This document shows, in pieces, positions 1 through 41,266 of a stretch of DNA of 41,642 nucleotides; position 1 is the first letter of the stretch, and each line of letters opens with the position of its first letter. The DNA is from a virus (taxonomy: Duplodnaviria; Heunggongvirae; Uroviricota; Caudoviricetes), in the IMG/VR virus record IMGVR_UViG_2541047897_000010. One strand, given 5' to 3'. The notes below the pieces were generated by a model. It saw only the letters and a list, made by a program, of their open reading frames with translations. It did not search any database and was not told where the DNA came from. The position numbers and the translations under genes were made by a program.

Positions 1-474
1 ATGTACAGTCCGGTACAAATAGCCAATAAATTCATAACGTTGGGAAACCAACATCATAATCCTCTGACCCACATGCAACTGCAGAAGCTTACTTATATTG
101 CCCATGGTTACTATTTAGCATTAACAGGTAAGCCTTTGCTCAATGAATGTGTCTCCGCGTGGAAGTACGGTCCAGTTATTCCTGGAATGTACGATGCTTT
201 CAAAGACTATGGGAATAAACCTGTTACGAATGTAGCAGTAGCTCCTTTTGGTGGCATCGTTACTATGGATCCGCAAGCAGAGAGCATTATCGGGGCTGTT
301 TATAAGTTTTACGGCTCGAAAAATGGAATTGAGTTATCAACTCTAACTCATATGCCAGGTACGCCTTGGTCACAAGCTTATAATGGTATTGGCTCGTCAA
401 TCATCTCAAATGATGCGATCAAGGCTTATTATCATGATTTATTGAATAACCGACAGCAATGTCAGGGCCTCTGA
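1..474 (+). CDS. Panacea/DUF4065-domain protein (SocA/PanA-like putative antitoxin or Abi component); upstream context not visible
   Basis: 157-aa ORF with motifs recalled for DUF4065 (KLQKLTYIAHGYYLA, WKYGPVIPGMYD, THMPGTPW); AT-rich DNA. Confidence 0.6.
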   Translation: MYSPVQIANKFITLGNQHHNPLTHMQLQKLTYIAHGYYLALTGKPLLNECVSAWKYGPVIPGMYDAFKDYGNKPVTNVAVAPFGGIVTMDPQAESIIGAVYKFYGSKNGIELSTLTHMPGTPWSQAYNGIGSSIISNDAIKAYYHDLLNNRQQCQGL

Positions 475-495
475 AAAGTAATATTCAGGGATGAC

Positions 496-1044
496 ATGTC
501 TCACAATTCAGATATTTATAAACTTATCGGAGCGGCCGCAGGTGTTGAAAATGGTCGCTCTGAAGCATCCTTAAACTCTACTGACAGTCAAGAACAGGTT
601 TTTAAATCTGCATTTGAGCCGTCTAATCATGAGAGCGACGATGATTCTTCTTCAGAAAATAAAGCTATTCTGGAGGCAGAAGAGTTTGGTTCTAATACTG
701 GTGCATTGCATGAGTTTATGCAGCAGAACAGAATGGACAGTCTTCAAGCTCAGCTTGATATGCTCAAATCACAAGTACGGGATAAGATAGCTGACGCAAC
801 TGGTAAAGAAATAGACAATGAGCTTCGGACAAAAATGGCCTCATTCACGGTTTGGTTTATGTCGTGTTGGTGCTTATTCGTTGTCGCAATGTTTACATCG
901 TTTCTTATTGCACATGAAGGAAAGCCTCCAGTTGAAGCGATCGTTGCATTACTAGGTACAAGTACAATTAGTATTGTTGGTTTGGTTGGTTTCGTTGTTA
1001 GTGGATTGTTCAAATCAAGAAAAGATAGTGATAAAGAAAAATAA
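496..1044 (+). CDS. Small membrane protein, acidic N-terminal region and two C-terminal transmembrane helices; candidate toxin/effector partner of the Panacea protein
   Basis: 182-aa ORF 22 nt downstream of the Panacea gene; AGGGA SD 5 nt before ATG; hydrophobic stretches FTVWFMSCWCLFVVAMFTSFLIA and IVALLGTSTISIVGLVGFVV. Confidence 0.5.
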   Translation: MSHNSDIYKLIGAAAGVENGRSEASLNSTDSQEQVFKSAFEPSNHESDDDSSSENKAILEAEEFGSNTGALHEFMQQNRMDSLQAQLDMLKSQVRDKIADATGKEIDNELRTKMASFTVWFMSCWCLFVVAMFTSFLIAHEGKPPVEAIVALLGTSTISIVGLVGFVVSGLFKSRKDSDKEK

Positions 1045-1075
1045 CCCGTACATATACGGGTTATCCATAGTTTTA
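1043..1075. terminator. Bidirectional rho-independent terminator between convergent genes
   Basis: Perfect 8-bp stem AACCCGTA/TACGGGTT (1043-1050, 1055-1062) with 4-nt loop, T-rich on both sides. Confidence 0.5.
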
Positions 1076-1077
1076 GT

Positions 1078-1350
1078 TTAGTTATATTTTTGTTTTTCCG
1101 TTCTGACTTTTTCCCACTCAGCTCGCCCTTCTTCCCGTCTTTTGTCAATATATTCCGCAAGATCCTGAATGTTGATGCAGCGTTTTGCTTTTTGTGATGT
1201 ACCGATGCGATATGTAGGTACAGGCAACTTACAAGCGTTTGCTTTTGCTTCTGCTGTGGCTGGACTCATACCAAAGTATTTTTGACTAACTGCTGAGAGT
1301 TCAATGTTAGGGGTATTGAATTCAGCCATCAGTAAAAACAAGGTGTTCAT
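1078..1350 (-). CDS. PrtN-like / excisionase-like small DNA-binding protein
   Basis: ORF with start MNTLFLLMAEF at 1350 (GGAG 6 nt upstream); sequence pattern recalled for pyocin-activator PrtN family; ORF track gives a longer version from 1377. Confidence 0.45.
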   Translation of the reverse strand: MNTLFLLMAEFNTPNIELSAVSQKYFGMSPATAEAKANACKLPVPTYRIGTSQKAKRCINIQDLAEYIDKRREEGRAEWEKVRTEKQKYN

Positions 1351-1386
1351 AATTTTCTCCATCAAAACCGGCTGCACCCGGGAAAA

Positions 1387-1959
1387 TCATAATTCTGTGC
1401 TGGTGGCAGGAATTAATTTCTGCCAGATAGCGGAAACATATTTTGCCTGATGACGGGCATCGGCCAGGGCGTTGTGCCGTTCGCCATCGAAAGGCATGTC
1501 CATTTTGGGGTCGAATCCGATGGAACGCCCAAGCGTAACGATCGTGCGTACATCGTGGTCATTCCAGTATGCCCACGGGCAGATTTGTCCTGCTCGCTCG
1601 TAAGCTCCACGTAAAATTACGTTGTCGAAGGTGGCCCCGTTACCCCAGACTTTTAAATATTTTGTATTGTCTGCATGCTGATTAATGAAATGGCTCAGTT
1701 CAGAGAGTGCATCGCTGATCGACAAAGTATCATCAATACAGATTGCAGCTCGTGCTTCAGAGCTCTGTTTCAACCACCACAGGATGGTATCGCCGTCAGG
1801 TGTAGCTCCTTGCTTCATAGCACTGTCCAGGCTAACAACCGTATAGAATTCTTGTCCGATGTCTCCGGTTTCTGGAGTGAAGAACACCGCGCCAATGGAA
1901 ACGATCGGTGCATCCTTATTTTTCCCCATCGTCTCAAGGTCGATCATTAAGTTGTTCAT
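1387..1959 (-). CDS. DEDD-type 3'-5' exonuclease (DnaQ-like)
   Basis: N-terminal MIDLETMG motif (Exo I D-x-E), C-terminal H-x4-D motif region; ATG at 1959 with GAGGTGA SD. Confidence 0.6.
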   Translation of the reverse strand: MNNLMIDLETMGKNKDAPIVSIGAVFFTPETGDIGQEFYTVVSLDSAMKQGATPDGDTILWWLKQSSEARAAICIDDTLSISDALSELSHFINQHADNTKYLKVWGNGATFDNVILRGAYERAGQICPWAYWNDHDVRTIVTLGRSIGFDPKMDMPFDGERHNALADARHQAKYVSAIWQKLIPATSTEL

Positions 1960-2768
1960 CACTTCACCTCTTGTGATGGTTTTGCTGCAAAATACTCGAT
2001 ACCTTTATCCCAGATAGATTTTATGGTCGACCACGTGACTGGCACTTTAATTTCAATACGTCCGCTCCCGTCACAGGTATCGCAATCATCATCGCCAAAG
2101 CATTCCAGGCAGCTTATAAACGTAGTTTCTGAAAATTCACCGGATAGCGCCCCCTTAGCGCCGTTCTCGGCTGTTAGTCTCTTCGGCACCATAACCCAAC
2201 CATCCGGAGTTACCGGAGAGTTGCCAGACAGTGCGTTCTGCAATCGTTCCAGCTTAACGTATTCCTGAACCCTGTTTCCGTCGCACGCCTGAAGCCATTG
2301 CACAGCCTTTTGCGCATCAGTGTGAAAGGCACAAGTGCGACCGTCATCAAATTGCATTTCGTAGAGGTCAGCAACCTGTTTAAACTGCGTTTGTGGCAAC
2401 TTGTAAGCCTGGCTTGCAGGTACGGCACCATAGAGCATGGCAGCGCGGCAGGCGTTCCAGCCTTCATCAAAACCGACTATGCCATTATTTAAAGACGGAC
2501 GAGCATCTGGCACCACCGGCACTGGCTTGGCTATATATAGCGGCTGAACATACCAGCCCTTTGATAACCAACTGTCAGCAATGTTTTTACTCCTGGTTAT
2601 TGCCGGAATACCTAAGCCATTGTCTGAATGCAGCCATGCCACCGGATCCTCTTCCAGCGATGCCAGAGCAATTTCATAAGCACGGCGCTCAACATTGTCT
2701 CGCACGTCCATGCTGCTGATTCGTTCTTTGATTTCTTTAATCAGTTCTTTATCGGTAAATGTGGTCAT
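1959..2768 (-). CDS. Hypothetical phage early protein (Cys-rich C-terminus)
   Basis: 269-aa ORF, GGAG SD, start/stop overlaps with neighbours typical of an operon. Confidence 0.5.
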   Translation of the reverse strand: MTTFTDKELIKEIKERISSMDVRDNVERRAYEIALASLEEDPVAWLHSDNGLGIPAITRSKNIADSWLSKGWYVQPLYIAKPVPVVPDARPSLNNGIVGFDEGWNACRAAMLYGAVPASQAYKLPQTQFKQVADLYEMQFDDGRTCAFHTDAQKAVQWLQACDGNRVQEYVKLERLQNALSGNSPVTPDGWVMVPKRLTAENGAKGALSGEFSETTFISCLECFGDDDCDTCDGSGRIEIKVPVTWSTIKSIWDKGIEYFAAKPSQEVK

Positions 2769-3130
2769 TATGCTCCAGCCTCCGGTGCTTTTGGCATTAC
2801 TGCCCAGTGAGTGATGTTGACGTTTTCAAGGTCCCCGACCTGAAATATCCACTGCCATTCTCCGGTTTCTTTTTGCCCCCATGTATACCAGAGAGAACGC
2901 CAGCCAATCAGCCAGCCTTCTCCATTAGCATCAAATAACAGAACACTTTCATTCGCTGGCGGCAGTTCAGCTGACACTGGTATTACTTTGTTTTCCAGTG
3001 CTGCACATTTAGCTTCAAGCGCATCAAATTTACGCACCAGGTATTCAGCATCCGTTTCATTCACTTTCAGATCTCGCGGTACACATTTCCCGCGAAGAAA
3101 TCCTTCCATTTCGAAAACATTCATGCGCAT
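2768..3130 (-). CDS. DUF551-like hypothetical protein (CPS-53 YfdS-like by position and length)
   Basis: 120-aa ORF with Trp-rich C-terminal region (GWLIGW...WYTWGQ); overlapping stop/start with upstream gene. Confidence 0.5.
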   Translation of the reverse strand: MRMNVFEMEGFLRGKCVPRDLKVNETDAEYLVRKFDALEAKCAALENKVIPVSAELPPANESVLLFDANGEGWLIGWRSLWYTWGQKETGEWQWIFQVGDLENVNITHWAVMPKAPEAGA

Positions 3131-33788: not shown

Positions 33789-34363
33789 CAAACGATGATT
33801 ACATCCGTCTGTTGTCGGCACTGTTGCCCCCTGGTCCGGCGTGGTCAGCCAGCGATCCGGCGATTGCCGGTGCAGCACCGTCATTAACCCGCGTTCATCA
33901 GCGTGCGGATGCCCTGATGCGGGAGCTGGATCCGCGCACCACCACTGAACTGATAAACCGCTGGGAGCGTCTGTGCGGTCTGCCGGATGAATGTATTCCG
34001 GCGGTAACGCAGACCCTTCGCCAGCGTCAGCAACGGCTGGATGCGAAGGTTAACCTGGCGGGCGGCATCAACGAGGATTTTTACCTTGCACAGCTTGCTG
34101 CCCTGGGCAGACCAGACGCTACCATCACGCGATACGACAAAAGCATGTTCACCTGCTCATCGGCCTGTACTGACGCGGTGAATGCGCCGGAATGGCGGTA
34201 TTACTGGCAGGTCAACATGCCAGCAGCCACCAACACCACCTGGATGACATGTGGCGATCCCTGTGATTCCGCGCTGCGTATCTGGGGTGACACCGTTGTC
34301 GAGTGTGTGCTTAACAAACTCTGCCCGTCGCATACCTACGTAATTTTTAAATATCCGGAGTAA
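33779..34363 (+). CDS. Tail protein, DUF2313 (Mu gp48 / YmfQ-like)
   Basis: 194 aa; precedes tail fibre. Confidence 0.6.
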
Positions 34364-34366
34364 TCC

Positions 34367-35491
34367 ATGCATCGTATAGACACGAAAACCGCGCAGAAGG
34401 ATAAGTTCGGCGCGGGTAAGAACGGTTTTACCCGTGGTAACCCCCAGACTGGCACGCCTGCCACCGATCTGGATGATGACTACTTTGACATGTTGCAGGA
34501 AGAACTTTGTAGCGTTGTTGAGGCATCCGGTGCCAGTCTGGAGAAGGCGCGGCACGACCAGCTGCTTACCGCGCTTCGTGCGCTGCTGTTAAGCCGCAAG
34601 AATCCGTTTGGCGATATCAAATCGGATGGCACTGTGCAAACGGCTCTCGAAAACCTTGGTTTGGGAACACTGCAATCATCCTTCACAGATAAAACGGGTA
34701 AAATTGCATTAAATGGCGGGTGGGGGCTTGGGATAAAGGCAGACCAGGTAAGCGGAACTATGGCGGCGTTGGACGTCAGTCGCTTTGATTATTTTGCCCC
34801 TGCAGATAATATCGGTCCTTATCCTGGGCAGTGGGCTGGTGGTATTTCATTTGCTAACTCAGGTTCAACCGGGTGGCAAATCTGCGGTGCGTCTCTCGGT
34901 TCCATTCCTGACTTTAGTGTGAGGATAAAAACGAATCAGACTGCATTTTCTGACTGGTATAAGTTGTACCACACAGGATTTAAACCCACTCCCGCTGATA
35001 TAAACGCTATCCAACGTGATGCGTGTGATGTGGCTGGGTTTATTTCCAACAATCAACAAGACCCATACATGAGGCATTCGGCATCGAATAACATCATACA
35101 GCTTGCCACTCGTCAGTTTGTTTCTCAATCTATTTCCAGCCTCAGTCTGGGTACAGCAGCAACAAAAAATGTGGGTACAGGTGCTGGACAAATACCGGAT
35201 ATGTCTAGTTTTACGAGTGGTACCGGCTGGGCATCTTTACCGGGTGGGACTATTATCCAGTGGGGTATTGCAGCCTCTGGTCAAATTGGCGATCCGCAGA
35301 CAATCAATTTCCCCGTACCTTTTACAAATTACAGTACAGTTCAGCTTGTTGCTTCATATGATAACGCTGGCGCTTCAGGTGCACCTTATAGCTTTGCAGC
35401 TCAACCTATCAGTAATACCCAGTTCAAATTATTAAATTCAACATCATCATCAGCCGTTATTTACGCTCGGTGGATTGCGATCGGGAGATAA
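34367..35491 (+). CDS. Tail fibre protein (constant N-terminus joined to currently expressed variable C-terminus)
   Basis: Conserved N-terminus [22 protein letters not shown]...; crossover site inside gene; C-terminal part AT-richer. Confidence 0.75.
34645..34670. repeat. Left inversion crossover site (gix/hix-like)
   Basis: TCTCGAAAACCTTGGTTTGGGAACAC; inverted copy at 37024-37049. Confidence 0.55.
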
Positions 35492-35496
35492 TTAGA

Positions 35497-35940
35497 ATGA
35501 ATAAATATTTTTATGATGTATCTACAAATGCTTTCTATCCGATAGCTATGAAGGAAATTTATGAATCAAATGGAATTAATTTTGACAATGCTAAGGAGGT
35601 TGATGAAAAACTATTTATTGAGTATTCAGGCGAACCACCGAAAGGGAAAATCCGCATTGCTGGTGAAGATGGTTTTCCTGCCTGGGGTGATATTCCGCCG
35701 CCAACGCACGATAAACTTGTTGCAGCAACTGAAGCACAAAAACAACTGCTAATCGACCAGGCTAACGAGTACATGAACAGCAAGCAATGGCCGGGAAAAG
35801 CTGCAATGGGACGGCTGAAAGATGCCGAAAAGGTACAGTATAACGCGTGGCTGGATTACCTGGACGCACTGGAGCTGGTTGATCCCTCCAGTGCTCCAGA
35901 TATTGAATGGCCTACGCCTCCGGCAGTTCAGGCCAGATGA
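35497..35940 (+). CDS. Tail fibre assembly protein (Tfa), expressed orientation
   Basis: ATG 35497; C-terminal conserved Tfa-like region (...YNAWLDYLDALELVD...). Confidence 0.65.
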   Translation: MNKYFYDVSTNAFYPIAMKEIYESNGINFDNAKEVDEKLFIEYSGEPPKGKIRIAGEDGFPAWGDIPPPTHDKLVAATEAQKQLLIDQANEYMNSKQWPGKAAMGRLKDAEKVQYNAWLDYLDALELVDPSSAPDIEWPTPPAVQAR

Positions 35941-36505
35941 CATTCGGCGCGGTGCTGGTATCTGTTGCCGTCACCGCGTCAATGTAATCCAGCACAGCGT
36001 TAAGCCGGGTTGTTTCTGCCTGCATCAGCTTCCGTCCGGCCTGTGATTTCAGTTGAATCAGACTGATGGAAGCCATTGCAGCATCAATCAGCGACTGGCG
36101 CTGTGCTTCTGCCGCTTCTACTGCGGCGCTATGCTGTGCCTCGGTATCCGTCACCCATTTCTCACCATCCCATTTATCGTATGGCGTTAACGGTGAAAGC
36201 GTGACATAACCGTCTTTGATGGCACCGATATAATCCACTGTAACAGCTGCGCCATTTTCAGTTGAGTAAACGGTCTCATTGCGATGGTCTTCTTCATGGC
36301 TCCATCCCTTACCCGTAAATACTGCCACTTTTCCCGGAATGTTTTCGCCCGGGTCAATACCAGTGGAACAGGCGGGTATACTTACGCCAGTATTAATATA
36401 TTCATCAGACCAGCCGGTATATTCATACGTTACTGCATTATAATAAAAACAACGCATATCGCCCGGCACTGTAGCCAGCCCATTTTCATCAAAAACAGGT
36501 TTCAT
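35912..36505 (-). CDS. Alternative tail fibre assembly protein (Tfa prime), silent orientation
   Basis: 197 aa on opposite strand; C-terminal region (...LNAVLDYIDAVTATD...) parallels Tfa. Confidence 0.6.
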   Translation of the reverse strand: MKPVFDENGLATVPGDMRCFYYNAVTYEYTGWSDEYINTGVSIPACSTGIDPGENIPGKVAVFTGKGWSHEEDHRNETVYSTENGAAVTVDYIGAIKDGYVTLSPLTPYDKWDGEKWVTDTEAQHSAAVEAAEAQRQSLIDAAMASISLIQLKSQAGRKLMQAETTRLNAVLDYIDAVTATDTSTAPNVIWPELPEA

Positions 36506-37077
36506 TATTTAGCCCTCACCAGAAAGTTAAATGCAATATTTCGTGGACGGGTTTCTGTACCTACATGTCCACTAATTTCACCATAACGTTTAACACTACG
36601 AGAGCTAAGAGCTCGTAGTGAGGAAGGCACCTTAAGACCGGGTTCGTCCGTTTTAACTATTCCCCCGTCACCATATGTAGCCAGTATTCCTGGGTTTACT
36701 CCTTCCCGTGCACTTCCTGCAGCAAGCCCGTCCCCCGTCCACAATTCCATATTGTGTGCATGATCCATAATTGTGTGTGATTGCCCTGAAAGTAGGGTAC
36801 GTCCGACATCAATCCCGCGCCCATCATCCCAGATACGAATGAAATCACCCCGTGCGTCAGGTAATGCTAGCGCCGGAAACACTTTCGCCAGCACAGGGTA
36901 ATCAGTGGCAGAGAATTTCGCGCCGTTGAACTTCAAAAACACCATACTGGACCAACTGTCGATTACAGTATTTGGCATTGCGGCGGACGGCCAGAAGAAC
37001 GGAACGCCAATAGCTGGAGCACCTTCTCCCAAACCAACGTTTAAGAAAATGCAGAGATTATGGCTAACTGGCATCAT
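36505..37077 (-). CDS. Alternative tail-fibre C-terminal coding segment (promoterless; fused to constant N-terminus after inversion)
   Basis: Reverse ORF whose N-terminal codons (..NVGLGEG..) are encoded by the right crossover site, mirroring ENLGLGT at the left site. Confidence 0.5.
   Translation of the reverse strand: MMPVSHNLCIFLNVGLGEGAPAIGVPFFWPSAAMPNTVIDSWSSMVFLKFNGAKFSATDYPVLAKVFPALALPDARGDFIRIWDDGRGIDVGRTLLSGQSHTIMDHAHNMELWTGDGLAAGSAREGVNPGILATYGDGGIVKTDEPGLKVPSSLRALSSRSVKRYGEISGHVGTETRPRNIAFNFLVRAK
37024..37049. repeat. Right inversion crossover site (gix/hix-like)
   Basis: TTCTCCCAAACCAACGTTTAAGAAAA, reverse complement of left site with identical core CCCAAACCAA-G-TTT. Confidence 0.55.
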
Positions 37078-37104
37078 CCCCGGTTTTTACTCAGGGGAAT
37101 GCTC

Positions 37105-37662
37105 ATGCTTATTGGCTATGTCCGCGTATCAACAAATGACCAGAATACGGAATTGCAGCGTAATGCGCTGGAGTGTGCAGGATGTGAGCTGATTTTTGAA
37201 GATAAGATCAGCGGCACTAAGTCCGACCGACCGGGACTGAAAAAACTGCTCAGAACATTATCAGCAGGTGACACTCTGGTAGTCTGGAAACTGGACCGAC
37301 TGGGGCGCAGTATGCGGCATCTTGTCGTGCTGGTGGAGGAGTTGCGCGAACGTGGCGTTAATTTTCGCAGCCTGACGGATGCTATTGATACCAGCACACC
37401 AATGGGGCGCTTTTTCTTTCATGTGATGGGTGCCCTGGCTGAAATGGAGCGAGAGCTTATTGTCGAACGTACTAGGGCGGGCTTTGCCGCAGCACGACAA
37501 GAAGGGAGGAATGGTGGGCGAAAGCCAAAGCTGACAGTAGAACAATGGGAGCAGGCTGGCAGGTTGATTGAATCGGGAATATATCAGCAGCAAGTCGCAC
37601 TGATTTATGATCTGGGTATTTCAACGGTGTATAAAAAATTCCCTGTAGCAAGTAAACCATAA
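37105..37662 (+). CDS. pin: Serine DNA invertase (Gin/Pin/Hin family)
   Basis: N-terminus MLIGYVRVSTNDQNT...; near-collinear with recalled Gin/Pin sequences; C-terminal HTH. Confidence 0.85.
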   Translation: MLIGYVRVSTNDQNTELQRNALECAGCELIFEDKISGTKSDRPGLKKLLRTLSAGDTLVVWKLDRLGRSMRHLVVLVEELRERGVNFRSLTDAIDTSTPMGRFFFHVMGALAEMERELIVERTRAGFAAARQEGRNGGRKPKLTVEQWEQAGRLIESGIYQQQVALIYDLGISTVYKKFPVASKP

Positions 37663-37688
37663 CCTTACGCCACATTGATGATCGCGGA

Positions 37689-38384
37689 TTATGCACTATT
37701 TTTAGGTCTTGTAACCCGAGGTGGGAGTTGTTTGGTTATATGTTCAAGTGATTTTTTGCCCAAGATAGTTCTTTGGACAAAACTTTCTATAGCTTCTAGC
37801 ATTTGTTCGAACTCACTTTTATTCGGGCTCCAACTGCGATGTGCGGCGGCGTTTCCTGCATCAATTACAGAAGATATAACGCATGCCTCAGTGTCGCCTA
37901 TGACTCCATCTTGTTTTAATTTTTCAACTTTTTCACCAAGCGGCAAACCGGGGTGAATTTGTAACAGTTCAGCAGTTCGATCAAAAATCGTCCGTAAACC
38001 GATGGACGAAAGGATGAAATGGTCAGAAGTATATGAAGAATACATTTCATTAAATATTTGAAAGAGCTGACGATCAACTGATTCAAGCTTGGATAACCAT
38101 ATCGGAGCTTGAAATGTTTCAGCGGCAGGATAGGTAGTGATCATATCTATAGGCGTTTCTACAAATTCACCATCACGATATTCGTGGGTAGTATGCTCAC
38201 TGAAGTGTTCGTTGTGGTGATAGAAGACAGTATCACAGCCATTGCATTGGAGTAGGTGATGGTAATGGTACCCATAAACTGGATATTGGGAATCCTCCCA
38301 GCTAGTGGTTAGCTTCCCATGCACAGTGCAGTTACGTAACCCACCGCATGTAGGGCAAAGAGCCTTGAGTATTTCCTTTTTCAT
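37689..38384 (-). CDS. Zinc-ribbon + DUF4145-like protein; candidate phage-defence/exclusion gene
   Basis: 231 aa in AT-rich island between invertase and dinI/int; N-terminal CPTC...CNGC; C-terminal helical domain with IDAGNAAAH motif recalled for DUF4145. Confidence 0.5.
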   Translation of the reverse strand: MKKEILKALCPTCGGLRNCTVHGKLTTSWEDSQYPVYGYHYHHLLQCNGCDTVFYHHNEHFSEHTTHEYRDGEFVETPIDMITTYPAAETFQAPIWLSKLESVDRQLFQIFNEMYSSYTSDHFILSSIGLRTIFDRTAELLQIHPGLPLGEKVEKLKQDGVIGDTEACVISSVIDAGNAAAHRSWSPNKSEFEQMLEAIESFVQRTILGKKSLEHITKQLPPRVTRPKNSA

Positions 38385-38732
38385 AAAGTCTCTGATTCTA
38401 TATGTAGGTTAAGACCACTATTAGCTATACGGACCTAATAATCAATCGTGTGCAGATACAAAAAAGCCCGTATAGCGGGATTTCATGTCACTAAGGGCCG
38501 CGGCTACTTTGCGTATCTTTTTTGTCTTCTCACCGTCTGGCCGGTATTTTGCTGAGACTGCTTATTTCCAGTTTTTACTAGTGCTGTACTGGTACTGCCC
38601 AATCATGATTGGTGGGGGACGGAGTTGAAACCGCAGCCACGTCGTATGCAAGAACGCGCTGCGGTTGGCTGGTGAACTTTCGATAGTGCGAGTATTGAAT
38701 GATTTCCAGCCGTTACAGATTTTACGTGTTTA

Positions 38733-38981
38733 TTAGTGAACAAACCACTCGTCAGCAGATTCCCAGGTATCTTTCAGAGTCTCCTGAACAAAAGTTTTTG
38801 CAGAATCCTTATCTGCGGTGCGTGTAACAGAAAGGCCATCATTGCTGGTGGCTTTTACTAACACCTCAACATCGTCATAACGCTTACTGATGCGTCGGGT
38901 TAATTCTTCCTTTAACGCATCCACAGCACCGGTTGGCATTTTAGTCATTTTTTCTTTGGCTATGCAGATTTCAATACGCAT
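38733..38981 (-). CDS. dinI: DinI-like SOS-regulated protein
   Basis: 82 aa; MRIEI...[12 protein letters not shown] closely parallels DinI; tandem LexA boxes immediately upstream. Confidence 0.75.
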
Positions 38982-38994
38982 AAAAGTCCCTCCA

Positions 38995-39014
38995 TACTGT
39001 GTTTGTATACAGTA
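38995..39014. promoter_or_regulatory. LexA (SOS) box 1
   Basis: TACTGTGTTTGTATACAGTA, perfect CTGT-N8-ACAG. Confidence 0.65.
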
Positions 39015-39022
39015 TTATTTTT

Positions 39023-39042
39023 AACTGTATGGATAAACAGTG
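39023..39042. promoter_or_regulatory. LexA (SOS) box 2
   Basis: AACTGTATGGATAAACAGTG, CTGT-N8-ACAG; 9 bp from box 1. Confidence 0.6.
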
Positions 39043-40140
39043 TCAAGAGGTCTTATTTCTGCTCCTTTGGAGCTCTTCAAAACGATTATGTAAAGATTTC
39101 GGATACAGTTCGGTATATACCTGCCATAGCACGTTTAATGAACGATGCCCTGTAACCTGGGCGACTTCCTCAATACTAAAACCAGCCTCAAATAAGCGAC
39201 TTGCCCCTTCTCTACGCAAATCATGGTATCGCAGATCCTTAATACCTAATTTGCTTCTTACTCTCTGAAATCCCGCAGTAACAGAAGTGCTGTTATATGG
39301 AAAAATGAATTCCGATTTTTGGGGCTGTCGTTGGACGATATCCCAGGCTTCCCCAAGCAAGGCTACTTTCATGTGGTTGCCTTCCTTTTTGCGTGGATCT
39401 TTCCTGTCTCTTACGAGTATAGATTTTTGTTCCTGGTCGAGATCTTCCCATCGTAACCGGCATACTTCTCCGATTCGCATACAGGACCATACAGAAAATT
39501 TGAGGATATCAACGAACGGAATTTTTGAGCATTTATGAGTAGATCGTTGTTGAAGGCCTGCAATGAGCATGTCCAGTTCATCAGATGCTGGTCTACGATT
39601 ACGACGGTTTGATTTACCAATCAAACCAAGTTTAAGTAGATATGGGCGAGCGCTTTTCGCCGGGTTTGATGTGTAATTAATTCCGTATACAGGTTTGGCC
39701 GCATCCAGAACACTGCCAAGATAACTAACATCGTGGCTGACTGTTGCAGGACCTGCACCAGCGTTGTTTCTTAGCCTGCAATGTTCAATTACGTCATTTT
39801 CTGTCAGTTCAGATAGTTTGATCGCGGAGATGTCACTATCCATAAGCAGTTCCAGCACATATCTTTTAGTACGGCCTGCTTTACCTCCGGCATTTGGGTC
39901 ATTTAAATATTTGTGTAGTAAGTCACGGACTGTAAGTCCGTCAACTGCATTTGATGATGGAATGCCATATAGATCTAATTCCATCACTTTCTGTGTGCCC
40001 CATGTTTTGGCATGAGCATGTTTAGGGAATGTTTTGCTTTCCCTGTAAGTGATAACACCTTTTTCTTTGATAATCACATTACAGCGATAGCGTGGTGTGC
40101 CATCGGATTTTAGTCGTTTCTCTATGTTATAGTACGCCAT
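39043..40140 (-). CDS. int: Tyrosine integrase, dusA-associated type
   Basis: 365 aa with catalytic R...HDLRR...GHRSL...Y residues; divergent from and adjacent to dusA. Confidence 0.85.
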   Translation of the reverse strand: MAYYNIEKRLKSDGTPRYRCNVIIKEKGVITYRESKTFPKHAHAKTWGTQKVMELDLYGIPSSNAVDGLTVRDLLHKYLNDPNAGGKAGRTKRYVLELLMDSDISAIKLSELTENDVIEHCRLRNNAGAGPATVSHDVSYLGSVLDAAKPVYGINYTSNPAKSARPYLLKLGLIGKSNRRNRRPASDELDMLIAGLQQRSTHKCSKIPFVDILKFSVWSCMRIGEVCRLRWEDLDQEQKSILVRDRKDPRKKEGNHMKVALLGEAWDIVQRQPQKSEFIFPYNSTSVTAGFQRVRSKLGIKDLRYHDLRREGASRLFEAGFSIEEVAQVTGHRSLNVLWQVYTELYPKSLHNRFEELQRSRNKTS

Positions 40141-40160
40141 TACACGACCTCGTTATTTCG

Positions 40161-40195
40161 GGTTCCCATAAAACGTGGGAACCTGTGCGGGAACC
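40161..40195. promoter_or_regulatory. Inverted plus direct repeats in int-dusA intergenic region (candidate integrase/regulator binding sites)
   Basis: GGTTCCCA-7nt-TGGGAACC then GGGAACC. Confidence 0.3.
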
Positions 40196-40228
40196 TAACG
40201 CGAGAAAAATAGCCTGAAATGTTCAAAA

Positions 40229-41266
40229 ATGCACGATAATCATGAAACAAAAAAAATTAATCAAACCAGCGTGATGCCTGAAAAAACTGGTGTTTACTGG
40301 AATTCTCGGTTTAGCATTGCTCCTATGCTCGACTGGACGGACAGACATTGCCGTTATTTCCTGCGTCTGCTTTCCCGCAATACGTTGCTGTATACCGAAA
40401 TGGTGACCACAGGGGCGATTATTCACGGTAAAGGTGATTACCTGGCGTACAGTGAAGAAGAACATCCGGTAGCGTTGCAACTCGGGGGTAGCGATCCGGC
40501 GGCGCTGGCACAGTGTGCGAAGCTGGCAGAAGCGCGTGGATACGATGAGATCAACCTGAATGTCGGCTGCCCGTCTGACCGGGTGCAGAACGGCATGTTT
40601 GGTGCGTGTCTGATGGGTAATGCGCAGCTGGTTGCCGACTGCGTGAAAGCGATGCGCGATGTGGTGTCGATTCCGGTGACGGTGAAGACGCGTATTGGCA
40701 TCGATGATCAGGACAGCTATGAATTTCTCTGCGATTTCATCAACACCGTTTCCGGCAAAGGTGAGTGTGAGATGTTCATCATCCACGCACGTAAAGCCTG
40801 GCTTTCTGGGTTAAGTCCGAAAGAAAACCGTGAGATCCCGCCGCTCGATTATCCGCGTGTGTATCAACTGAAGCGTGACTTTCCGCATCTGACGATGTCG
40901 ATTAACGGTGGTATCAAGTCGCTGGAAGAAGCTAAAGCGCATTTGCAACATATGGATGGCGTGATGGTCGGGCGCGAGGCGTATCAGAATCCGGGTATTC
41001 TGGCGGCGGTAGACCGAGAGATTTTTGGTTCCTCGGATATTGATGCCGATCCGGTGGCGGTAGTGCGCGCCATGTATCCGTACATTGAGCGTGAACTCAG
41101 CCAGGGTACGTATCTCGGCCATATTACCCGGCATATGCTGGGCTTGTTCCAGGGTATTCCTGGCGCGCGGCAGTGGCGGCGTTATTTAAGTGAAAATGCC
41201 CATAAAGCGGGTGCAGACATTAATGTGCTGGAACACGCGCTCAAACTGGTGGCGGATAAGCGTTAA
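40229..41266 (+). CDS. dusA: tRNA-dihydrouridine synthase A
   Basis: 345-aa ORF with Dus TIM-barrel motifs ([21 protein letters not shown]); alternative start at 40274 (MPEKT) possible; 5' end may be phage-supplied. Confidence 0.85.

Follow-up and report, generated by a model that had tools for sequence, protein, structure and literature searches.

Described dusA-specific elements

The elements closest to the locus considered here are those carrying a dusA-associated integrase (DAI). In this family, the int gene lies beside the start of dusA and is read in the opposite direction, dusA receives a replacement 5′ end and promoter from the element, semi-conserved att repeats of about 21 bp flank the element, and the integrases have the RHRH residues and Tyr; excision as a circle that restores native dusA was demonstrated for islands of Acinetobacter and Pseudomonas, and the members include the phage mEp460 and, in Table S1, the dusA island of EC4115 at 5179273..5190127 (Farrugia et al. 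2015, PMC4482086). Among individual phages a near case is Φ1720a-02 (KF030445), an Stx2dact phage that integrates 100 bp into dusA and whose delta-int mutant yields no attP, showing that Int is needed for excision from dusA; GGGTTCCCATAAAACGTGGG and CTTTGGATAGGTTCCCAATAGGC are the published outward attP primers (Balasubramanian et al. 2019, PMC6328086). In work on IMEVchUSA3 and other dusA-specific islands of Vibrio, excision of a dusA-specific element was found to require RdfN, and dusA was shown to gain a new promoter and to have its reading frame restored (Durand et al. 2021, PMC8409611).

The int–dusA junction

The window, meaning the whole stretch of 41,642 nucleotides that was analysed, ends in a closely comparable arrangement. 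Positions 39043-41266 almost certainly represent the right-hand junction (attR) of an SfV-like temperate phage of about 40.6 kb, inserted in the 5′ end of dusA, a tRNA-modification gene of E. coli. The relevant features are as follows.

39043-40140, minus strand: dusA-associated tyrosine integrase (DAI), 365 aa, identified by Pfam PF00589 and by family comparison
40229-41266, plus strand: dusA ORF, 345 codons, intact, with full-length matches to Pfam Dus and NCBIfam DusA
40229-40324, plus strand: dusA′, the substitute 5′ end of the gene contributed by the phage, 32 codons continuing in frame into the host part
40325-40332, no strand: att core or crossover interval ATGCTCGA, 8 bp, dusA nt 97-104
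40333-41266, plus strand: host-derived remainder of dusA, 97-99% identical to prophage-free E. coli, with pspG downstream

The first-pass annotation had proposed a prophage placed in the 5′ end of dusA by a dusA-associated integrase, and this is borne out by the integrase comparisons, by the breakpoint in dusA and by a matching attP, all described below; its reading of an integrase divergent from dusA at 88 bp from the start agrees exactly with the measured spacer (40141-40228). The integrase matches the Pfam Phage_integrase profile PF00589 (E = 8e-21, profile positions 7-169 of 172), and alignment to XerA (5hxy) places its catalytic residues at R222, H306, R309, H332 and Y342, so that the complete RHRH tetrad and nucleophilic tyrosine of the tyrosine recombinases are present. 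It is identical at 362 of 365 residues to the dusA-island integrase of EC4115 (O157:H7), an island whose end coordinate in Table S1 of Farrugia et al. corresponds to dusA nt 104, and it shares 98.6% identity with the mEp460 integrase and 99.2-99.5% with those of phages 1720a-02, Lys8385Vzw, PhiR40_1 and phiSTEC1575-Stx2k. On these sequence comparisons it is a member of the DAI family, and it must be said that this class of junction has already been described and experimentally tested by others, there being nothing new in the arrangement itself.

Aligning the 5′ end of dusA to that of prophage-free K-12, as had been suggested beforehand, reveals a sharp identity breakpoint at nt 96/97. Over nt 1-96 the identity is 80.2% (19 mismatches in 96 nt), as against 96.9% over nt 97-1038 (29 mismatches in 942 nt), a contrast in mismatches before and after the core that is highly significant by Fisher's exact test (p = 5e-9); at the protein level, DusA differs from its K-12 counterpart at 11 positions, 10 of them within residues 1-30. 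The expectation that the element brings its own version of the dusA 5′ end is thus upheld (80% against 97% identity, with the ORF intact), and a nearly identical dusA′ is found in the attP of the free phage mEp460. Some 15-30 phage-supplied codons had been predicted; the stretch measures 32 codons as the ORF is annotated, and 17 should translation in fact begin at Met16. The att core had been expected within those codons, and the alignments place it at the very end of the stretch (nt 97-104) rather than in the middle. Its boundaries follow from the two junctions, since attR departs from K-12 only through nt 96 and attL only from nt 105 on, and it lies inside a semi-conserved att site at 40317-40339. 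Beyond it, the gene order dusA, pspG, qorA is syntenic with K-12. The site at 40317-40339, i.e. attR, is the only att-like site in the window: a search of its whole length with a degenerate 23-mer, allowing up to 3 mismatches, found no second one, and attL must therefore lie outside.

Repeats on the two arms of attP

The spacer contains an inverted pair of repeats (GGTTCCCA at 40161-40168 and TGGGAACC at 40176-40183) and a direct pair (GGGAACCT at 40177-40184 and 40189-40196). Such repeats had been noted earlier as possible integrase or regulator sites; they are indeed present, and the comparative evidence supports a role of this kind.

40161-40196, no strand: three putative integrase arm-type sites of the P arm, GGTTCCC (inverted) at −164 and GGGAACC at −148 and −136 from the core start

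In the window as a whole the repeat 7-mer is not over-represented (7 found, 4.5 expected); the occurrence of three copies inside 36 bp, for which only about 4e-4 cases would be expected per window, is far above chance. Two further copies, at +51 and +62, lie on the other arm of attP. The arm repeats and the core are identical between the window and the attP of mEp460, the positions in both being −164/−148/−136/+51/+62, while the corresponding positions are −163/−148/−136/+50/+61 in YeP1 and −147/−136/+61 in SMHB1. The repeat sequences themselves vary among these elements (GGGAACC, GGGGTGC, GGGAGACT), further variants being found at matching positions in four more loci (L023, L067, L068 and L009), in one of which, L009, there is a compensatory change within the inverted pair.

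The most likely interpretation of the GGTTCCCA/GGGAACC repeats is that they are arm-type sites, which the N-terminal domain of the integrase would bind in a lambda-like intasome. The integrase carries about 60 extra residues at its N-terminus, with a conserved motif Y-I-E-x-R...RYRC-V...RE-x-x-TF-K, and the variable positions of this motif differ between repeat classes. A search of residues 1-120 against Pfam at E <= 1 returned no match and hence no recognised arm-binding domain; sequence and profile searches of the PDB with the integrase returned only matches to XerA-like catalytic domains and none for the N-domain; and a single-sequence AlphaFold2 model of residues 1-64 was unusable (pLDDT 52.5).

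It could be argued instead that the repeats are operators, either for RdfN (the excision factor described in the next section) or for some transcriptional regulator acting on the two diverging promoters, those of int and dusA′. They are located in a divergent-promoter spacer, one pair of them forms a perfect palindrome, and perfect palindromes are typical of dimeric regulators. Neither Pfam nor the PDB profile search gave the integrase an arm-binding domain, and as RdfN has also diverged between the window and YeP1 (54% identity), co-variation cannot tell Int from RdfN. Operators would, however, have to be reconciled with repeat copies that occur on both attP arms at distances to the core conserved to the base pair in three genera. 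Copies on both arms at fixed distances from the core are characteristic of arm-type sites, RDF sites being normally confined to a single arm. A further point against operators is the N-terminal addition of some 60 residues, with a conserved motif whose variable positions differ from one repeat class to another. The operator reading is accordingly considered unlikely. If they are arm-type sites, the co-varying repeats would offer ready specificity variants with which to dissect intasome assembly in this integrase family.

Attachment sites, phage body and mobility

The relations between the three attachment sites were established by taking attR from the window, attL from the genomes of relatives and attP from mEp460. 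Two further features are needed here.

1-40324, no strand: prophage DNA, an SfV/SfI-like lambdoid myovirus mosaic, with the left end and attL about 305 bp beyond position 1
1078-1350, minus strand: rdfN homologue, a PrtN-family recombination directionality factor (excisionase), PF11112 E = 4e-23, phrog_1300 ‘excisionase’ E = 8e-40

The first-pass annotation had suggested looking for the same core at the left prophage boundary, and a second copy does occur there in strains 19-5 and VG888-46E9, some 305 bp to the left of window position 1; in both strains the leftmost 3 kb are 100% identical to the window and the prophages are shorter. In these two strains and in EC4115, attL consists of a 105-nt dusA 5′ pseudogene, which matches K-12 exactly as far as nt 104 and then gives way to phage DNA. 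The attP of the free phage mEp460 equals the window's left arm, the core and the right arm of attL, and the record of phage 1720a-02, which stops at the core, is identical to window positions 40141-40333 at 192 of 193 nucleotides; the Φ1720a-02 attP qPCR primer GGGTTCCCATAAAACGTGGG (PMC6328086) corresponds to window positions 40160-40179. The same int–dusA junction is present in 741 of 5426 complete E. coli genomes (about 1 in 7), and none of these 5426 genomes covers at least 80% of positions 34300-40400.

As to the phage body, the nearest deposited phage is Escherichia phage SKA5, and most of the window is 97-98% identical to SKA5, SfI, SfII and SfV; the replication, lysis, head and tail modules are complete, again at 97-98% identity to known phages. 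In the excised circle rdfN sits across attP from int, and the same rdfN family adjoins attP in mEp460 and YeP1. The cargo between the invertase and int varies, a DUF4145 gene of the window being missing from 19-5 and VG888-46E9; PADLOC gave no matches for the DUF4145 protein, the Panacea-domain protein or the latter's neighbour.

Given such a junction, the prophage might nevertheless be a fixed remnant, its int gene and att sites being relics and no working module surviving. Precedents for decay do exist: the EC4115 island, a remnant of the same element, measures 10.9 kb and has many pseudogenes, decayed integrases are found in Intestinirhabdus (L060) and Silvania (L071), and related prophages contain a few pseudogenes. 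Set against these are a full-length integrase ORF, 99% identical to those of the plaque-forming or inducible phages mEp460, SKA5, PhiR40_1, Lys8385Vzw and 1720a-02, an intact rdfN, arm repeats and core that match the mEp460 attP, and complete phage modules, all of which makes a remnant improbable, and we infer that the prophage is probably still mobile. The notion that an integrase happens to lie beside an unmodified native dusA with no insertion, for which adjacency alone would count, is already refuted by the sharp breakpoint at nt 96/97, by the displaced native 5′ end at attL and by the dusA′ carried in free phage genomes.

Promoter region and the 5′ end of dusA in K-12

A candidate for the promoter supplied by the phage lies just outside the spacer.

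40125-40133, plus strand: TGTTATAGT, an extended −10-like element, candidate phage-supplied dusA promoter

It falls on the opening codons of int, which is read from the opposite strand (complement of the int ATG at 40138-40140). In the native dusA loci of about 70 species of Enterobacteriaceae, TGCTATAGT is found at −97 to −105 from the core, and in element-type loci TGnTATAGT or TGTTATAAT is found at about −200, overlapping the int start in every case. These positions suggest that TGTTATAGT may serve as the replacement dusA promoter. A scan of 38900-40500 for consensus sigma-70 two-hexamer promoters found none in the 88-bp spacer, the only one detected being that of the DinI gene, at 39046-39017, for which mEp460 has an annotation. 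The TATAGTA shared by the upstream regions of K-12 and the window was at one stage taken for a relic of an int start; that reading was given up, and TATAGTA is taken for a conserved −10 element of the dusA promoter, since it also occurs in native loci free of prophage.

Some observations on dusA alleles at large belong here. A short DusA N-terminus (M-x-x-ES-x-T...RFSIAPMLD), with zur next to the gene, is found in native Enterobacteriaceae, in 21% of E. coli genomes, and in E. albertii and E. whittamii; the long MHxNxE... form of DusA is otherwise confined to genes that lie downstream of a DAI integrase or of a decayed remnant of one. When K-12-type and native E. coli dusA alleles are compared, they cannot be aligned before the att core and are 97% identical after it, with the switch exactly at the core. 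K-12-type loci further show a 15-residue N-terminal extension, a leader of about 90 nt and a yjbL/yjbM (DUF2713) segment of 35% GC, which together make up the candidate fossil considered next.

Two points go beyond what was found in the literature. One is a reading of the K-12-type dusA 5′ end, which K-12 shares with most other E. coli, as itself the fossil of an older dusA-specific element; the other is a fixed five-site arm architecture, common to all these elements, which, together with a replacement dusA promoter lying over the int start codon, possibly couples occupancy by Int to expression of int and dusA. Taken jointly, these two readings are judged to have slightly better than even prospects of being right. 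A native dusA 5′ fragment beside zur in K-12, which would complete a fossil attL, was sought and not found, and the corresponding loci of 80 other species contained no DUF2713 homologues. Should the fossil reading be true, it would mean that neither the N-terminus of the reference DusA nor its promoter is ancestral.

Proposed mechanism

In the scheme that these data suggest, the phage tyrosine integrase would recombine attP, which sits within a phage-borne mimic of the dusA 5′ end, with the chromosomal attB at dusA nt 97-104 (ATGCTCGA). The host promoter and the first 104 nt of the original dusA would thereby come to lie in attL, at the opposite prophage end. At attR the phage promoter region and 32 substitute codons are joined in frame to the remainder of the gene, which still encodes an intact DusA. 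The N-terminal domain of the integrase would presumably bind GGTTCCC/GGGAACC on both arms of attP in assembling a lambda-like intasome, and excision would be expected to require both the integrase and the PrtN-family RdfN from the opposite end of the prophage (1078-1350). Near-identical or homologous elements provide precedents, namely Int-dependent excision to attP (PMC6328086) and, for RdfN, the need for it together with a new dusA promoter and frame (PMC8409611).

In practical terms, the prophage boundary should be annotated at 40332, inside dusA. As the dusA-specific family is already published and widespread in E. coli, several Stx2 phages making use of it, it is mainly for such boundary annotation that the finding is useful.

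Comparison with known systems

Compared with the DAI family as described (PMC4482086), the divergent int, the in-frame replacement 5′ end of dusA and the catalytic residues match, an att site stands at the right end of the element, its left counterpart being seen in relatives, and there is no essential difference, the present case being a prophage member in E. coli. The likeness to Φ1720a-02 is close but confined to the integration module, which is all that the two have in common: the integrase is 99.2% identical, the int–dusA′ arm agrees at 192 of 193 positions, the core and its position in dusA are the same, and both have an in-frame phage dusA′. Φ1720a-02, however, is an Stx2-converting lambdoid phage with a different body, whereas the window has an SfV/SfI-type myovirus body in which no stx was noticed. 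The integrases of mEp460 and SKA5 are 98.6-99.2% identical to that of the window; with SKA5 the resemblance extends to most of the phage body (97-98% identity), while mEp460 has a lambda-like side tail fibre, and its structural module therefore differs.

With the IMEVchUSA3-type islands the locus shares the integration site and a PrtN-family RdfN across attP from int. Those islands, on the other hand, are SGI1-like and mobilisable, with rdfN driven by IncC AcaCD, whereas here the element is a prophage in which rdfN is presumably driven from the phage early-left operon. Finally, the resemblance to the Int/attP system of lambda lies in short repeats on both arms, each at a set spacing from a short core, and in a separate RDF, and by analogy it is proposed that the integrase works in a lambda-like manner as a heterobivalent arm-binder. 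Unlike in lambda, attP has the RDF gene on one side and int on the other and is set within a gene mimic, and the integrase is of another lineage, the DAIs having been placed nearest to Rci (Farrugia et al. 2015, PMC4482086).

Integrase, dusA and the attachment site

The window DNA is that of E. coli, and pspG lies downstream of its dusA, as in K-12. The pair of genes at the right-hand end of the prophage is arranged as follows.

39043-40140, minus strand: integrase ORF, 365 aa (Pfam Phage_integrase, E = 8e-21)
40229-41266, plus strand: dusA ORF, 345 aa (end-to-end match to Pfam Dus and NCBIfam DusA)

The two are on opposite strands with a gap of exactly 88 bp, bearing out the divergent arrangement described in the first-pass annotation. 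When 39900-40700 was used as a query, its dusA portion was matched by all of the 5426 complete E. coli genomes (5426/5426), and the integrase-dusA junction was spanned in only 741 of them. Alignment with the prophage-free K-12 derivative TG1, taken as the reference, places the anticipated identity breakpoint at dusA nt 96/97: nt 1-96 contain 19 mismatches (80.2% identity) against 29 in the 942 nt of nt 97-1038 (96.9%; Fisher's exact test, p = 5e-9). Residues 1-30 hold 10 of the 11 amino-acid differences between the window and K-12 DusA proteins, and the reading frame is intact.

At the other end, window 1-3000 is 100% identical to the left prophage ends of E. coli strains 19-5 and VG888-46E9, in both of which RefSeq records a 105-nt pseudogene ("tRNA-dihydrouridine synthase, missing C-terminus") about 300 bp to the left of the equivalent of window base 1. 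This attL pseudogene matches K-12 dusA to nt 104, with phage DNA beyond. Given that attR is non-host up to nt 96 and attL non-host from nt 105, the crossover interval must be nt 97-104, that is ATGCTCGA at window 40325-40332. A degenerate search of the window found no second att site; the left prophage boundary lies outside it, and it is there, in 19-5 and VG888-46E9, that the predicted second copy of the core was found. The element, measured from the inferred attL core to 40332, is about 40.6 kb long. The proposal that the phage supplies the start of dusA is upheld as to origin, the number of codons being 32 instead of roughly 15-30; the core, which had been expected within them, is at the end of this stretch.

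Repeats in the spacer

The repeats noticed between int and dusA are present where they had been mapped.

40161-40168 and 40176-40183: inverted pair, GGTTCCCA and TGGGAACC
40177 and 40189: direct pair, GGGAACCT

Across the whole window the heptamer is not enriched (7 copies found, 4.5 expected); for three copies within 36 bp the expectation is about 4e-4 per window.

Repeat positions in attP, counted from the core as origin (the window attP is a composite of the window and 19-5)
Window / phage mEp460; integrase, reference; GGGAACC; -164 (inverted), -148, -136, +51, +62
Yersinia phage YeP1; integrase, 68% identity; GGGGTGC; -163, -148, -136, +50, +61
Salinivibrio phage SMHB1; integrase, 55% identity; GGGAGACT; -147, -136, +61, degenerate copy near +50

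The same P-arm positions carry GGTGT(A/C)C in Pluralibacter (L023) and Silvania (L071) and GGGA(A/G)CC in Kosakonia (L067) and Phytobacter (L068), and in Escherichia sp. MOD1-EC7003 (L009:~1150-1200) the inverted pair shows a compensatory double change, GGTCCCC/GGGGACC. Geometry that is kept on both arms while the sequence varies with the integrase is what marks out arm-type integrase sites. The first-pass annotation had allowed for either integrase or regulator sites, and this two-arm co-variation supports that reading; comparison of sequences indicates that the GGGAACC-type repeats are probably Int arm-type sites, binding by RdfN (the PrtN-family excision factor) or another regulator being a minority alternative. 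Some 60 integrase residues precede the core-binding region and include a conserved motif, the variable positions of which differ between repeat classes. Neither Pfam nor the PDB gave a match to an arm-binding fold in this N-terminus, and a single-sequence AlphaFold model of it had a pLDDT of 52.

Native and element-type dusA starts

About 70 of 80 Enterobacteriaceae species have a short native DusA N-terminus, with zur adjoining dusA; in these native loci TGCTATAGT and a GC-rich discriminator are conserved 97-105 nt before the core. A long N-terminus (MHxNxE...) occurs with a dusA-associated integrase (DAI) upstream in L009, L023, L067 and L068, with a decayed integrase in L060 (Intestinirhabdus alba) and L071 (Silvania hatchlandensis), and with a small insertion and no integrase in comparison loci L021, L033 and L069 and in K-12-type E. 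coli. In L060 and L071 the decayed ORFs, of 43 and 31 codons, adjoin a dusA 5' end of the element type, and the two loci are intermediate stages of element decay.

Element-type loci have TGnTATAGT or TGTTATAAT about 200 nt before the core, represented in the window by one feature.

40125-40133, dusA strand: extended -10-like element, TGTTATAGT

In all element-type loci this element overlaps the start of int, here the first five codons on the opposite strand (40125-40140). It was not flagged by a two-hexamer promoter scan; it may be a replacement promoter for dusA that is coupled to the start of int.

The native short type, with zur adjacent, is also found in 1123 of the 5426 E. coli genomes, as well as in E. 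albertii, E. whittamii and most other Enterobacteriaceae. Native E. coli alleles share 33% identity with K-12 (equivalent to random) over the 96 nt before the core and 96.8% after it; comparing L001:1406-3099 (K-12 TG1) with L004:2869-3010 (GPEC606), the two types cannot be aligned as far as the att core (window 40325) and are 97% identical from exactly that point on. The K-12-specific 1.7-kb segment, which contains DUF2713 yjbL/yjbM, has 35% GC as against 52-55% in its neighbours, and the K-12-type N-terminus is long (MHGNSE...), resembling element-supplied 5' ends. Taken together, the switch at the core, the low-GC insert and the element-like N-terminus suggest that an earlier dusA-specific element left the K-12-type start behind as a fossil. 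No native dusA 5' fragment was found next to zur in K-12. The present prophage would then have re-used the same site, displacing the fossil K-12-type 5' end to attL.

Prophage body and cargo

The body of the prophage is that of an SfV/SfI/SfII-like lambdoid myovirus (97-98% identity), the closest deposited genome being Escherichia phage SKA5, which has the same integrase.

1-474, plus strand: Panacea (SocA-like antitoxin) domain protein, next to attL
496-1044, plus strand: 182-aa protein (best Pfam E = 0.0085, well below the family cut-off and unconvincing)
1078-1350, minus strand: RdfN homologue (PF11112, 4e-23; PHROG "excisionase", 8e-40)
35912-37077, minus strand: tail-fibre and tail-fibre-assembly ORFs, adjoining the invertase in opposite orientation
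37060-37662: serine DNA invertase (Resolvase and HTH_7)
within 37689-38981, minus strand, between the tail-fibre invertase and int: DUF4145 protein (231 aa; PHROG "DNA binding protein") and DinI-like protein

The RdfN homologue lies across attP from int, as it does in mEp460, YeP1 and the island remnant of O157:H7 EC4115. The Panacea-domain and 182-aa genes run opposite to the early-left operon and are candidates for a toxin-antitoxin or defence moron; PADLOC returned no match for either protein. The segment 35912-37662 resembles an invertible host-range segment of the Gin/Pin type, the orientation of which may be why no complete E. coli genome gave a contiguous match to 34300-40400. Cargo between the invertase and int varies among related prophages: the DUF4145 gene is missing from the otherwise similar prophages of 19-5 and VG888-46E9, and the interval is therefore a variable cargo slot. 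A separate promoter, at 39046-39017, serves the DinI-like gene.

Comparison with known dusA-specific elements

Overall, the observation first made on this DNA is confirmed and its interpretation supported. Within the literature searched, the side observations have modest novelty: the papers returned by a full-text search for dusA arm-type sites were all unrelated.

Among phage integrases, identity to that of the window is (by tblastn) 99.5% in Lys8385Vzw and PhiR40_1, 99.2% in 1720a-02, SKA5 and phiSTEC1575-Stx2k, and 98.6% in mEp460. The mEp460 attP runs from a window-type int-dusA' arm (dusA' being the phage-supplied 5' end) through the core to the right arm of attL, just as site-specific attP x attB recombination predicts, and the deposited 1720a-02 genome, which starts at the core, agrees with window 40141-40333 in 192 of 193 positions.

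The dusA-associated integrases were defined by Farrugia et al. 2015 (PMC4482086), who reported more than 200 bacteria with int at the dusA 5' end, a new 5' end and putative promoter coming from the element, and 21-bp semi-conserved att repeats at its flanks, with excision verified by PCR; mEp460 is among the phage hits they name, and their Table S1 includes E. coli prophages and the EC4115 remnant (5179273..5190127). In the EC4115 genome that island starts at the end of a dusA pseudogene and ends at dusA nt 104, and its integrase is identical to that of the window at 362 of 365 positions. The insertion of Φ1720a-02 in Citrobacter rodentium is 100 bp into dusA, its core has 7 bases, the phage "ΦdusA'" is in frame, and deletion of int abolishes attP formation (Balasubramanian et al. 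2019, PMC6328086); one of the attP primers published there is identical to window 40160-40179. According to Durand et al. 2021 (PMC8409611), dusA-specific elements have the PrtN-domain protein RdfN as their excision factor, and on integrating they give dusA a new promoter and put it back in frame. The system in the window is one already known, and its experimental characterisation was done with an integrase 99% identical to this one.
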